A DNA stretch of 17,970 nt from a virus (lineage: Duplodnaviria > Heunggongvirae > Uroviricota > Caudoviricetes): the IMG/VR virus record IMGVR_UViG_2718218128_000004. The stretch is one strand, 5' to 3'. The notes under the pieces were generated by a model. That model was not told the origin of the DNA. It did no database searches and worked only from the letters and a program-made list of their open reading frames with translations. Of the stretch, positions 9,775 through 13,476 are shown piece by piece. A program made the translations under genes and the position numbers. The stretch's first letter is position 1. Every line of letters starts with the position of its first letter.

Positions 9775-12159
9775 TTAGTACCACTGCCGCCATTTATCAT
9801 CTTCCTGCAGGCGCTGGTTTCGATAGAACAAACGCAGCCCGGCCCCGGACGGGATACTGCCACCACGCAAAAGCAGATCCACCTCGGTATCACTCGCATC
9901 GAACCCCCTAGACCTCAGTTCAGCATCAAGCTGCTGGCGCTGATGATTGCTAATCTGCTGTTTGTACCCTTTCTGCCGCTTAGGTTTTACCAATCTCAGC
10001 CGCGCCGTCAGCTCCCGTCGTTCCTTCGCGCTCAGATTATGAAGATCCGGCAGCGGCTCCGGCCCACTGGCTTCTGGTAAATCGCCTCCTGATTGGTTCA
10101 AATTTTCAACAGGGGGATAGTTATTGCCACGAGTCCAAGGGGCGCAAGCGCCCTGGTCGGCTGCCGCCTCCTGAACGTCAACGGCCTTACGAACCATTTT
10201 CCACTTCACGGCATGAGTGCAGATCTTGCCCTCTGCAATGGGTGACCAGATGCCATAAATACGAATGCCGTGATCGCCATAGGCGGTCGGCTCTTCGTTG
10301 ATTTCATAAGCGGTTCTGATCAGGTGATATTTGCGGGAAACCAGTACGCCGCCCTGCTTCATGATGTAGGTGGCAAAACAACCAGCATCAGCAGCAGCCA
10401 GGATGGCATCAAGGCGCGGGTTATCCAGTACCGGCGCACCTGCTTTTTTGTCGCCCTGTTGCCTTGCCGCCTGACCAGCCAGCAATCGCAGTTCACGGTA
10501 AGCCTGACGCCCCGGAATGCCAAAGAAGCGGAATTGCTGAACACGATGCAGAGACGCCCAGGCATTAACGTATTCAGCGTTATCACGCAGGGATTTACCC
10601 GTTTCCTTGCTGATCTCGCCAGCCAGACCACGCCCGTCAATGTTCTTACTGATGTATTTCGCGATGTAGCTTGTCGGTGTTCCTTTGCGCGGGTTTATCA
10701 GCTCAGATTTAAAGCGTGGACCTGTGTTATTACCCAGCTCCTCGCGGTCTTCACGGATGGCAAATTTACGCAACAATGCAGTAATGGCGCGGCGGTCTTT
10801 TTTGCGCATGAAACACAACAGGTGCCAGTGAACTGTACCGTCATGATGCGGCTCAGCCACCCGCACGCCATACCAGCGCAATCCGGCTTTGTGCATCGCC
10901 TTACGAAATGCAGCAAACATGCCGACCAGATAATCGCTGCTTTGTCTTACCGTCGCATTTGTCCAGGTCGGGTTGGGCCTGCCGTTATTTAGCGTGGAAT
11001 GGAAACGTGACGGACAGGTGATGGTGTAGAAAACGGCGCAGTCACCGCGCATTTCCGCGATAAGCTCCAGACCTTTAACACAGGCCATCATCTCATTGCG
11101 GCGATGCGCAGGGTTGCTGCTGCTGGCGTTTACCACATCTTCCATATCCAGCGTGTCGCCGTCTTCGTTCACCAGTTCATGAAAACGGAAAAACTCCAGC
11201 GACTTACGGCGCTGCTCACGTTTATGCATCACGGCTTCATAGCTGACATAGGGAGATGCTTTTTTGCTGACCAGGCAGACAGCACGCAACTGCTCTTCTC
11301 GCCATTCGCAACGCATCTTCCATAATTTCCGATACCACCAGTCGGCGCACAGCATACGCGCCAGCGAACCCGGAATGAGTTCATAAGGCACAGGTTTGCG
11401 GCGGTTTCTTTTCCGGCGGAGTTGCTCAAACGCAGGCGGTATGACATCCAGTCGCAGGGTTTCTGCAGCCACCTTTTCCCATGTCTTGCGGATTTCTTCT
11501 GGCTTAACATCATCGGAGGCGTACAAATCACCACAAGCGGCATCAAGACACATGCTCATATGCGCAGCGACAAGGGTAGACAGGCGTTTCACCTGATCCT
11601 GACTCATTTCAGGCAGGATCAGCAGACCGTCCAGCCCTTCATGGCTTGCCATAAAACGAAAAGATGCAGATAGCTGGCTGTCGCGTACATGCTCCAGTCG
11701 TTCCAGACATGGCTTAATCGTCTCACGCAAATAGCGGGAATAAGCCTTTGGCCTGCCCAAGCTGCTTAAATATTCAATACGTTGCATCAGCGGCTTGCTG
11801 ATATGGGAAGGCTGGGCGTTGACGTCAGCCAGAATGACCATGTCTGGATTAAAACGCTGCTGCTCATGCGCCATCTTTGCCCGGCTAATGAGCTTATCCT
11901 GCTCCATTTCGCGGTGGACAGGATCACGGGATTCATTAAAGAAATAACGCTCCCAGACCTGATCACTCAGTGCCTCGCGACGCAGTTGTTCCTGCTCGTT
12001 ATCGACAGCGTACAGAGTGATCAGGTTTGAAAGCGCAGAAACCGGCGCAACTTCCGCCGGGTCCAGATAAGGGTTAATAGCCTTTTTCGGGCTGTTCCAT
12101 GAGAATGCTGCGGCGGCCTCGTTAAAGCCGCTGCAGTTGTTCATATCAGCATGGCTCAT
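9775..12159 (-). CDS. A: Replication initiation protein A (rolling-circle endonuclease, P2 gpA family)
   Basis: 794-aa ORF of P2 A-like size; contains an HUH-type motif (VHWHLLCF) typical of rolling-circle initiators; start ATG 12159 overlaps the dam stop (ATGA). Confidence 0.85.
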
Positions 12160-13013
12160 GCACGCACTCCGTACACGGCAGAACTATCCACGCCACGCGA
12201 AGGATCAAATCCCACCCAGCAGCGCGCCCCAGAAACAGCGATGATTTCTGTTGCAGATTTACTCTCACCAGCTGCTACGCCGATGCTGCGTTTTGCCTTG
12301 ATGTAGTGGTGAGTAAAATTGCGATACAGCGAACGGATCAGGGATGTGTCACTGTTAGAAACAATGACCGGATGTCCTTCTGATGACCGATGTTCAAGAA
12401 CGGATGCCAGGTGATAATGGTCATCTTCAGTGAAGCCGTCAGTGTGATAACCGGAAAACGTGCCGTCATACGGCGGATCGCAATACACCACATCCCCCGC
12501 CTTCAACATCGCCAGCGTTTCATCAAAGCTGGCGCAGATAAACGTTGCCCGCTGGGCTTTTTCTGCAAATGCGCGAATTTCTTTTTCAGGGAAATACGGA
12601 TTTTTATAATTACCGTAGGGAATGTTGAAATGCCCGCTCTTGTTATAGCGACATAAACCACGGTAACCGTGACGATTGAGATACAGGAAATATACCGCTT
12701 TCATGAAATCAGTAATTTCAGTTGAGTAATTAAACTCCTGCCTTATGTTGTAATAAGCCACCTCCCTGTTTGCTTCCTTAAATAAAACTCTGGCGCGAGA
12801 TATAAACGATTCACAATCAGCGGCAACCTTTTTATAGAGGTTGATTAAATCAGGATTAATATCCGCAACCAGATAGCTTGGATAATCCGTCGCCATCATC
12901 ACAGCACAGGAACCCGCGAAAGGTTCAACCAGTCGCGGGCCAGCAGGAAGGTGTTTTTTCAGTTCGGACATAATTGCGGTTTTATTTCCCGCCCATTTCA
13001 GGATGGTGCTCAT
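12156..13013 (-). CDS. dam: DNA adenine methyltransferase (Dam family, N6-adenine)
   Basis: 285-aa product from ATG 13013 (track ORF starts 20 codons earlier); clear similarity to E. coli Dam including LKWAGNK, VEPFAGS (SAM-binding) and the catalytic DPPY motif; start overlaps the stop of the upstream zinc-finger gene (ATGA). Confidence 0.9.
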
Positions 13014-13237
13014 ACAGCACCTTCGTTGTAATGTTTGCCTTTCAGCTCTGCGATTTCCTGACAGGTAATGCAAAGCTGCACACCTGGAATGGCGCGGCGG
13101 CGTGCTGGCGGAATTGGCGCTTCACACTCAATGCAAAGCACGCGGGACACGCCCGGCGTTTTGGCACGGGCAGCACGGATATGGCGCTGGCGTTCTTCTT
13201 CAACGCGCTGCTGTACGAGATCCATTGCATCAGCCAT
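13010..13237 (-). CDS. TraR/DksA-family C4 zinc-finger protein
   Basis: 75-aa ORF with CIEC...CITC four-cysteine arrangement near the C-terminus, typical of phage TraR/DksA-like proteins (P2 orf82-like position); start ATG overlaps the upstream stop (TAATG). Confidence 0.7.
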   Translation of the reverse strand: MADAMDLVQQRVEEERQRHIRAARAKTPGVSRVLCIECEAPIPPARRRAIPGVQLCITCQEIAELKGKHYNEGAV

Positions 13238-13476
13238 TAGTGGATCTCCTGCGCTTCGTTCTGGATTGCTTCAGCAGTTACACGCAGTAGTTCTGCTGCT
13301 TCGACGTGGTTTAGCTGGCGGGATGTGATATGACACGCCAGGCTATCAAGGTGAGCTGCCATTGCTTCAGCCCTTGCCCGGCGTTCTTCCAGACGAGCCT
13401 CTGTCAGTAAAATATTAAGCCCTGCATCATCCGGTCCGGTTTTAGTCGTGAGGGTTTCAATATTACGCATAATCAA
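13237..13476 (-). CDS. Hypothetical phage early protein (79 aa)
   Basis: ATG 13476 with AGGAG 8 nt upstream; translationally coupled to the downstream zinc-finger gene; no family recognised. Confidence 0.55.
   Translation of the reverse strand: MIMRNIETLTTKTGPDDAGLNILLTEARLEERRARAEAMAAHLDSLACHITSRQLNHVEAAELLRVTAEAIQNEAQEIH

Follow-up and report, generated by a model that had tools for sequence, protein, structure and literature searches.

Described relatives of the prophage methylase

Prophages of the 186/Fels-2 type (Peduoviridae) in E. coli and related bacteria have long been known to carry an accessory adenine methylase gene in their early region, immediately before the replication gene. 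The dam gene of the retron-Ec67 (Retron-Eco2) prophage was reportedly the first to be described, by Hsu, Inouye and Inouye in 1990 in PNAS 87:9454, its Dam activity being credited on the title of that report. Orthologues occur in Fels-2-like phages (viz. RE2010, SopEPhi, SEN8, Cartapus, and Klebsiella Peduoviridae), where dam lies between the TraR-like gene and A, and in the RE2010, Klebsiella and SopEPhi relatives the overlaps at dam are the same as those in the window, by which we mean the whole 17,970-nt stretch of DNA analysed here. The Dam protein predicted from the window is 96% identical to a protein named "retron EC67 DNA adenine methylase" in NCBI, both being 285 aa long, and the SopEPhi record describes its own protein as "similar to retron EC67 DNA adenine methylase". 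Judged by these comparisons, the gene is the long-known accessory methylase of 186/Fels-2-type prophages, and the same gene as that first described in the retron-Ec67 prophage. The sequence-only reading that preceded this work had called it not novel as a class, which the named match and the widely annotated gene block bear out. There is no difference of substance from the Ec67 and Fels-2-like systems, except that the window copy lies in a deleted prophage of ~15 kb in which a cassette replaces the retron. The value of the present analysis is mainly one of correct annotation, since both the gene and its early-operon location were published from 1990 onwards and are routinely annotated; the general questions raised by phage orphan methylases, viz. 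what they contribute to the phage and whether they ever act on the host epigenome, apply here as well, and the window copy is not especially suited to answering them.

Other described systems are informative at the level of the operon or of the protein. Phage 186 has the same operon architecture (orf79-orf80-...-orf84-A), with a chain of 1-nt and 4-nt overlaps that ends at A. It has no dam, however; in its place, three other genes (exonuclease-like, DUF5405 and the PAPS-reductase-like orf84) separate the TraR-like gene from A. In some relatives dam is accompanied by one of the three. The Escherichia coli Dam protein (EcoDam; PDB 2G1P, 2ORE, 4GOL) belongs to the same D12-class alpha-type m6A methyltransferase fold family, and the window protein shows 47.5% identity to its residues 7–267; it differs from EcoDam in the clade-specific changes N120R and R137N and in being phage-borne, with a predicted lytic-operon control rather than a housekeeping role. 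The Dam proteins of T4/T2, P1, HP1 and Stx phages are also phage-encoded orphan adenine methylases of the GATC type, but they share only 23–36% identity (tblastn) with the window protein and reside in other genomic contexts. The locus is very probably best explained as an orphan Dam of a 186/Fels-2-type prophage, which would methylate GATC and be produced from a translationally coupled, CI-repressed early operon, its activity, specificity and expression all being predictions.

The DUF2732-TraR-dam-A block

Four genes on the minus strand, read in the order DUF2732, TraR/DksA zinc finger, Dam-family methylase and gpA, are chained by stop/start overlaps. The first of them (13237–13470) encodes a DUF2732 protein (PF10809, 5.3e-28; PHROGs phrog_128). 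It is followed by a gene for a 75 aa TraR/DksA-family C4 zinc-finger protein (13010–13237; phrog_54), the equivalent of P2 Orf82 and 186 Orf80, which belongs to the zf-dskA_traR family by its matches to PF01258 (3.1e-11, 43.5 bits against a cut-off of 24.9) and TIGR02419 (65.8 bits against 59.7) and contains a four-cysteine finger, CxxC-17-CxxC, at residues 35–59. The third gene, dam (12156–13013), encodes the 285 aa orphan Dam-family N6-adenine DNA methyltransferase of the retron-Ec67/Fels-2 type. The last gene (9775–12159) specifies the 794 aa gpA, a rolling-circle replication initiator/endonuclease (Phage_GPA PF05840, 8.6e-127, 423 bits; phrog_91, 5.6e-287), with the HUH motif HWHLLC at 444 and the paired catalytic tyrosines YIAKY at 498. 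The identities proposed earlier for the TraR/DksA protein and gpA are thus upheld by profile matches.

The junction between the DUF2732 and TraR genes is seen on the plus strand as CATTA at 13235–13239, i.e. TAATG on the minus strand, in which the stop codon of the DUF2732 ORF and the ATG of the TraR gene have one base in common. At both the TraR stop/dam start (13010–13013) and the dam stop/gpA start (12156–12159) the plus strand reads TCAT, corresponding to ATGA on the minus strand. The overlap chain of the sequence-only reading (TAATG at 13237, followed by the two ATGA junctions) is present in full at these positions. Each start has a Shine-Dalgarno (SD) sequence 5–8 nt upstream, viz. AGGAGA, AGGAGA, GAAGGTG, and GGAG for DUF2732, TraR, dam, and gpA, respectively, the GGAG being 7 nt from the gpA ATG. 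The AGGAGA of the DUF2732 gene lies 7 nt upstream of ATG 13470 and would abut the alternative TTG at 13476, and homologues of the protein in public databases are annotated as 77 aa; on the strength of this spacing and annotation, translation almost certainly begins at ATG 13470 and yields 77 aa. The ORF that had been taken for a 79-aa protein is accordingly real, and only its length requires correction. For dam, the program-listed ORF opens at TTG 13073, and ATG 13013 gives the 285 aa length seen in all annotated homologues and is, by this comparison, the true start.

Annotations of Salmonella phage RE2010, a Klebsiella Gegevirus, SEN8, SopEPhi, and K. pneumoniae kp52145 show the same overlapped four-gene block, which is also carried by about a quarter of complete E. 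coli genomes (1243 of 5426). In all 44 enterobacterial species loci compared, dam is situated after the TraR gene, in some cases with an exonuclease gene in between, and ahead of gpA, in some cases with an orf84-like gene in between. Stop/start overlaps are common in phage operons, those of 4 nt and 1 nt being the most frequent kinds of junction where operons are compact. Three overlaps in a row are unremarkable alone, but these ones have been conserved in evolution. Of the 44 species-representative loci, 42 have the 4-nt overlap at the dam start, whatever the upstream gene; at the other end of dam, a downstream ORF was found in 39 loci, and in 35 of these its start is overlapped by the dam stop, the overlap being 4, 7 or 10 nt.

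Structurally, these conserved overlaps support a putative coupling of TraR, dam and gpA translation, for which phage 186 offers a precedent: according to its curated record, A protein is apparently translated only if translation runs through to the end of orf84. Under such coupling, ribosomes ending one cistron after derepression would stop on or beside the start of the next (TAATG, ATGA, ATGA), and synthesis of Dam, and especially of gpA, would be tied to translation of the upstream genes, as is annotated for orf84 and A of phage 186. A possible, though doubtful, alternative is that the overlaps reflect genome compaction, every gene being initiated independently from its own SD, and neither dam nor gpA being functionally coupled to the gene before it (TraR and dam, respectively). 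The recognisable SD at every start and the ordinariness of such junctions in compact operons are both in keeping with independent initiation, as are four Kosakonia/Enterobacter loci in which the long ORF after dam opens 31 nt past the dam stop, indicating that overlap is not obligatory. Persistence of the overlap at the dam start next to different upstream genes, and the dependence of A on translation of the preceding ORF in phage 186, argue against it. Independent initiation is also in line with the behaviour of a hairpin, GGUGCU-GUAUG-AGCACC, that could mask the SD and AUG of dam (z -2.4): it occurs in many homologues, but it was rejected, there being no convincing covariation and several lineages that do not have it. 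Its arms are doubly constrained, the 5' arm comprising the SD and C-terminal codons of TraR and the 3' arm encoding Ser-Thr. A counterpart of tM1, the terminator located inside A of phage 186, was likewise rejected for the window gpA, where the candidate hairpin, 99–130 nt into the gene (-13.8 kcal/mol), has a z-score of -0.36 compared with -2.97 for tM1 and falls within conserved coding sequence.

Family, orphan status and predicted specificity of Dam

The assignment of the third gene to the Dam family, which the earlier reading had made while noting a DPPY motif, is firmly supported by matches to PF02086 (MethyltransfD12; 5.3e-77, 259 bits against a cut-off of 22), to TIGR00571 (323.7 bits, above the Dam family cut-off of 114.85), and to the E. 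coli Dam structure 2g1p (5.6e-73). Motif I (FAGS, SAM-binding) is found at residues 32–35 and motif IV (DPPY) at residues 179–182. The score against the host-Dam equivalog NCBIfam NF008152 (287.5 bits) does not reach its cut-off of 441, from which we infer that the protein is a phage paralogue and not the host dam product. Its best PADLOC model is an orphan methyltransferase (oMTase PDLC03729, 4.7e-111), Type II MTase models being secondary, and the neighbours of dam are TraR and gpA, with no nuclease gene adjoining it in the window and no restriction endonuclease gene adjoining it in any of the 44 related loci. By these indications the protein is an orphan methylase outside any restriction-modification system, as had been supposed.

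Residues with assigned roles in EcoDam (for GATC contact, as given in PMC4417163) allow the probable specificity to be considered. The DPPY motif, the SAM-site residues and six GATC-contact residues are kept in the window Dam and in 37–40 of 40 clade members; the equivalents of EcoDam W10, F35, G37, and D54 in the SAM site are invariant (40/40). Six of the seven residues of the GATC-reading set are conserved (K9, Y119, L122, R124, P134, and Y138 in EcoDam numbering), and the seventh, N120, is Arg in 40/40 members. A further DNA-contact position, R137, is N or K in the entire clade (40/40) and N in the window Dam. This pattern is compatible with GATC recognition, residue conservation not being proof of it. 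The most likely function would be methylation of the GATC adenine in phage DNA and, incidentally, in host DNA. The phage would probably benefit by having the progeny DNA that it makes rapidly by rolling-circle replication fully GATC-methylated and thereby protected from GATC-specific restriction and from MutH nicking, independently of limiting host Dam. The roles in protection from restriction and in host methylation that had been suggested for the gene are in this light a reasonable conjecture. GATC itself is at its expected frequency in the prophage (53 sites observed vs. 58–66 expected), the operon and dam, and with neither enrichment nor avoidance these counts show no sign of selection related to GATC restriction.

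Because N120 and R137 are changed clade-wide, the specificity or flank preference of the window Dam could differ from that of EcoDam. An unlikely alternative built on these changes holds that the protein is an active m6A methylase with a specificity or behaviour unlike host Dam and that it serves to reprogram host methylation patterns and not simply to act as a second Dam; relaxed first-base recognition, flank indifference, and modification of GATC sites left unmethylated by host Dam are examples of what such an enzyme might do. Both substitutions lie in the DNA-recognition hairpin, the protein scores below the host-Dam cut-off, and contacts to the first base pair are not conserved across the Dam family (PMC4417163), all of which would suit a variant enzyme. 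Conservation of the other six GATC-reading residues and an identity to EcoDam of ~48% across the catalytic and recognition region nevertheless point to GATC methylation of the usual kind. A more specific proposal, which we regard as improbable, is that the changes of N120 to Arg and of R137 to Asn/Lys have produced a Dam insensitive to flanks or to protein protection, which would erase host epigenetic states upon derepression. If this were true, pap/agn43-type switches and SeqA sequestration would be erased, and not merely the activity of host Dam duplicated, and, the replication module being intact, even a defective prophage could still deliver such erasure on SOS induction.

The preferred reading, that of a functional orphan Dam, is favoured by the pattern of selection. 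The dN/dS estimates for dam (0.09–0.18) show purifying selection on the Dam protein and not merely on an open frame; among the complete copies of the gene, 39 of 42 are intact with DPPY. It is very improbable, in our view, that dam is decaying or catalytically dead, and either not kept at all or kept only since expression of gpA needs its translation. The loss of most late genes from this prophage, the frameshifts in 2 of the 42 complete homologous loci and the presence of DSPY in place of DPPY in one copy would accord with decay; against it stand the full length of the window dam, in which all motifs are present, the selection on the protein, and the occurrence of the exact window protein sequence on 117 contigs. 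The notion that Dam provides the modification activity for a defence system, of the restriction-modification kind or another, has secondary PADLOC Type II MTase matches in its favour and can be practically dismissed in view of the orphan best model and the TraR/gpA flanks, devoid of an endonuclease gene, in 44/44 loci.

Predicted early-operon control and the remnant prophage

The upstream part of the early (pR) operon occupies 13538–14814 on the minus strand and consists of a cox/apl-like gene (14814–14593), cII (14560–14051), fil (14043–13843), and a DUF5347 gene (13879–13538), as assigned from Pfam, PHROGs, spacing and synteny with 186, RE2010, and SopEPhi. A 67-nt gap separates it from the overlapped block, of which dam would be the third cistron, at the distal end of the CI-repressed pR operon. 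The order cox/apl-cII-fil-...-DUF2732-TraR-(cargo)-A, divergent from cI-int, is that of a 186-type early lytic operon and is common to the related loci. A sigma-70 promoter (TTGACA-17-TATTCT; 10/12 consensus matches) is predicted on the minus strand at 14881–14909, and its placement relative to cI and apl corresponds to that of phage 186 pR. The CI immunity repressor (plus strand, 14903–15841, ~312 aa) has two tandem CI HTH domains and a CI C-terminal domain (PF07022, 2e-57 in two stretches; PF16452, 6e-25), and its gene, an uninterrupted ORF with its ATG at 14903, appears intact. With a repressor gene in this condition and a pR-like promoter, repression is the default expectation in a lysogen, where the dam operon is expected to be off. 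The earlier statement that the prophage still expresses early genes is therefore unsupported.

Expression data exist for a prophage Dam homologue of E. coli ST131 EC958, M.EcoMIV, which is reported to be transcriptionally silent in the lysogen (PMC4659465). We rejected it as a counterpart of the window dam: in EC958 the ybjL-rcdA site is empty and the P2-like prophage has no dam. Only one "DNA adenine methylase" is annotated within 860–992 kb and 992–1140 kb of EC958; it is a 254 aa protein, presumably M.EcoMIV itself, from a Mu-like prophage at 1.03 Mb. As this is a different gene, its expression data are not transferable to the window.

The prophage extends from about 2792 to just past 17970 (~15.3 kb), compared with 33–35 kb in intact relatives, and the late genes left are ogr, an N-terminal piece of H, I, a J fragment and a portal fragment; most of the others are gone, and the description of the prophage as defective was apt. 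It is integrated at ybjL/rcdA, which we take to be the site (about 19 min) that is also occupied by the Ec67 element. Set against the vacant EC958 rcdA-ybjL site and against the two ends of the prophage in KFu019, the insertion shows a duplication of 26 bases, and this att core (TGGGTTTTTTGTTGCCTGAAATTTAT) is located at 2766–2791, at the prophage/host junction beside ybjL. [quoted passage not shown] (1990) in PMC7826664. For the 221-aa hotspot protein, a single-sequence AlphaFold model was uninformative (pLDDT 32). The cos-proximal slot, where the Ec67 element has its retron, holds a three-gene cassette to which no function is assigned.

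The DUF2732-TraR-dam-gpA block and its prophage

Our analyses confirm that four minus-strand genes form a tightly packed block in the window. These are a DUF2732 gene (13470-13237; PF10809, 5e-28), a gene for a TraR/DksA C4 zinc-finger protein with the motif CxxC-17-CxxC (13237-13010, 75 aa; PF01258, 3e-11; TIGR02419 above cut-off), a Dam-family methylase gene (13013-12156, 285 aa; PF02086, 5e-77) and gpA, which carries the HUH motif HWHLLC and the motif YIAKY (12159-9775, 794 aa; PF05840, 9e-127). The three stop-start junctions described in the sequence-only reading were all read directly in the window sequence: CATTA on the plus strand at 13235-13239 corresponds to TAATG on the minus strand, and TCAT at 13010-13013 and 12156-12159 corresponds to ATGA at both places. 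The product of the first gene of the chain, given as 79 aa, should be 77 aa long from the ATG at 13470, which has AGGAGA 7 nt upstream. The dam gene starts at the ATG at 13013, as in every annotated homologue, while a mechanical ORF list runs to a TTG at 13073. Along the operon, tight overlaps (-1, -4, -4) are limited to this distal block, which is parted from DUF5347 by a 67-nt gap.

The left end of the window is host E. coli chromosome (viz. grxA, ybjM, and ybjL, the latter at 935-2620) up to base 2791, and the remainder is filled by a P2/186-like prophage inserted between ybjL and rcdA. The 26-base att core, TGGGTTTTTTGTTGCCTGAAATTTAT, is located at 2766-2791; it is present in two copies, one per end, in the homologous prophage of E. 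coli KFu019 and in a single copy in the empty EC958 site. The integrase gene occupies 16918-17970, the window ending exactly at its stop codon. The prophage is indeed defective, as had been proposed, for its late genes are mostly lost and it measures about 15.3 kb vs. 34.1 kb for Salmonella phage RE2010. The late genes are reduced to ogr (2856-3107), the first 179 aa of the tail fibre (3814-3275), gpI (4416-3811), a C-terminal fragment of gpJ (4855-4409) and a portal fragment (4965-5504), which indicates two large deletions. Apart from this wreckage at 2792-5504, the modules for immunity, early functions and replication seem intact.

Identity, predicted specificity and distribution of the methylase

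The methylase scores 324 bits against the Dam-family model TIGR00571 (cut-off 115) and 287 against the chromosomal-Dam equivalog model (cut-off 441), and hence it represents a paralogue and not the host dam. Its best PADLOC model is "orphan methyltransferase" (5e-111), and no nuclease gene adjoins it among the gene neighbours examined. M.EcoMIV of ST131 was ruled out as its counterpart, being presumably the Dam of a Mu-like prophage, which is the sole annotated DNA adenine methylase in the parts of EC958 covered (860-1140 kb). The best match among solved structures is E. coli Dam (EcoDam; 5.6e-73), with 47.5% identity to EcoDam residues 7-267. In EcoDam the first base pair is read by K9 and Y138, N120 forms a hydrogen bond to a base, L122 and P134 contact the third base pair, R124 is the main discriminator and reads the fourth, and Y119 is the intercalating residue (PMC4417163). 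The window methylase retains K9, Y119, L122, R124, P134, Y138, DPPY and the SAM-site residues, while N120 is replaced by Arg and R137 by Asn; the same pattern, including both substitutions, extends across the 40 clade members compared (54-96% identical to the window methylase). The retention of the recognition, SAM and DPPY residues in the protein and its clade makes GATC the most likely predicted specificity.

A conservation scan with one genome per species yielded 44 enterobacterial loci that span at least 15 named genera. In all 44, Dam lies 3' of DUF2732 and TraR and 5' of gpA, with an exonuclease or orf84-like gene occasionally intervening. Of these loci, 42 have the 4-nt overlap at the start of dam; at the dam stop, an overlap of 4, 7 or 10 nt with the next start is present in 35 of the 39 loci in which a downstream ORF was found, and a 31-nt gap in the other 4. 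Of the 42 dam copies that no contig end cuts, 39 are intact and carry DPPY, one reads DSPY instead, and the other two have a frameshift; pairwise dN/dS is 0.09-0.18 for seven representatives whose amino-acid identity goes down to 71%. The predominance of intact copies, the low dN/dS and the conserved overlaps argue against the possibility, named in the sequence-only reading as a refuting condition, that the gene is a pseudogene in homologous prophages. In Yersinia phage vB_YpM_MLG42 (PP599993), an intact 285-aa dam at ~1425-2270 falls within an unannotated GenBank gap and is missed by the public annotation.

The exact window Dam protein is found on 117 contigs in public databases, and its 90% cluster has 4038 members, nearly all of those listed being 285 aa long. 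One member, 96% identical, bears the name "retron EC67 DNA adenine methylase". The retron-Ec67 element is quoted as a 34 kb element with flanking 26-bp direct repeats that codes for a Dam methylase (PMC7826664), and Dodd and Egan (1996) are cited as having shown that it lies within a 186-related prophage. Its repeats are equal in length to the core duplication at the window prophage site. The element is presumably located at about 19 min, the same place as ybjL. Annotations of these four genes with identical overlaps exist for RE2010, a Klebsiella Gegevirus, K. pneumoniae kp52145, and SopEPhi, the last with the wording "similar to retron EC67 DNA adenine methylase" in its record; SEN8, unlike the window, has an exonuclease gene inserted between TraR and dam. 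At a coverage of at least 80%, the 1.44-kb segment is present in 45 phage records and in 1229 of 5426 complete E. coli genomes (1243 with any match). The dam block is already known and belongs to the textbook gene set of a prophage family that is very common; the initial observation stands and its interpretation was essentially right, the feature itself being of low interest.

Operon layout, coupling and proposed role

Phage 186 shares the operon layout, with cI-int divergent from cox/apl-cII-fil and face-to-face promoters between them; in the window a pR-like promoter (TTGACA-17-TATTCT) is predicted at 14909-14881. According to the curated record of phage 186, the ORF preceding A is non-essential and [quoted passage not shown]. 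The last place before A, that of orf84, is taken by dam in the Fels-2 lineage. By analogy, the TraR-A interval is a cargo slot whose last occupant would be translationally linked to A. Each start in the block has its own SD, so the coupling may be strict or merely facilitating. The contents of this slot vary among the loci compared (L007, phage 186; L004, SEN8; L016/L044; L022/L030/L032/L053), comprising dam alone, an exonuclease with dam, or dam with a PAPS-reductase-like orf84, and in phage 186 an exonuclease, DUF5405 and orf84 without dam; 4-nt overlaps chain the genes in every arrangement.

The SD and AUG of dam lie inside a 6-bp hairpin, GGUGCU-GUAUG-AGCACC (12996-13024, minus strand; z = -2.4 in a 101-nt context), whose loop holds the TraR stop codon. 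A role in masking the ribosome-binding site was considered and rejected, since many homologues have the hairpin but its covariation is not convincing. A search for a tM1-like terminator in gpA gave no convincing counterpart.

The CI gene (14903-15841, plus strand) appears intact, and dam would therefore be silent in the lysogen; the suggestion that the prophage still expresses its early genes finds no support in the sequence. Upon derepression, dam would be expressed along with the replication gene. Phage Dam may then allow rapidly made progeny DNA to be fully methylated and to avoid GATC-specific restriction and MutH nicking, which are standard proposals for such enzymes. GATC frequency in the prophage equals expectation, with no excess or shortage. 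The role of phage Dam enzymes has been described as "still not well understood" (PMC7556043). With a length of about 312 aa, the CI repressor comprises two tandem CI HTH domains (PF07022) and a CI C-terminal domain; the cI gene of phage 186 measures 579 nt, and KFu019 has two separate CI genes at this place.

Other cargo genes in the window

Three co-oriented, abutting minus-strand ORFs at 5568-7795 (371, 148 and 221 aa; 32-36% GC), probably of greater interest than dam, are located in the variable gpA-to-portal hotspot, which in related prophages houses defence cargo, the retrons Ec67 and Ec86 among it. None of the three ORFs has a match in Pfam, NCBIfam, PADLOC or PDB sequences, and they correspond only to PHROGs 9664, 11490, and 12777, of unknown function; KFu019 has the same trio. 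A D...ExK-like string in the 221-aa protein (GHCDITIK...WHGEAKKH) suggests a PD-(D/E)xK nuclease, and the trio is a candidate unclassified anti-phage cassette. The same hotspot contains, on the opposite strand (8874-9703, plus), an AT-rich two-gene cassette without family or defence-model match, in which a gene for a 124-aa protein (phrog_18061, unknown function) overlaps that for a 152-aa protein in which several segments are hydrophobic and membrane-like. Between the CI repressor and integrase genes, a 325-aa protein (15853-16830, plus; phrog_2628, unknown function; 30-36% GC) is encoded. KFu019 has a KAP-family P-loop NTPase at the equivalent position, which makes this a second cargo slot, and kp52145 has a hypothetical gene of similar size there.
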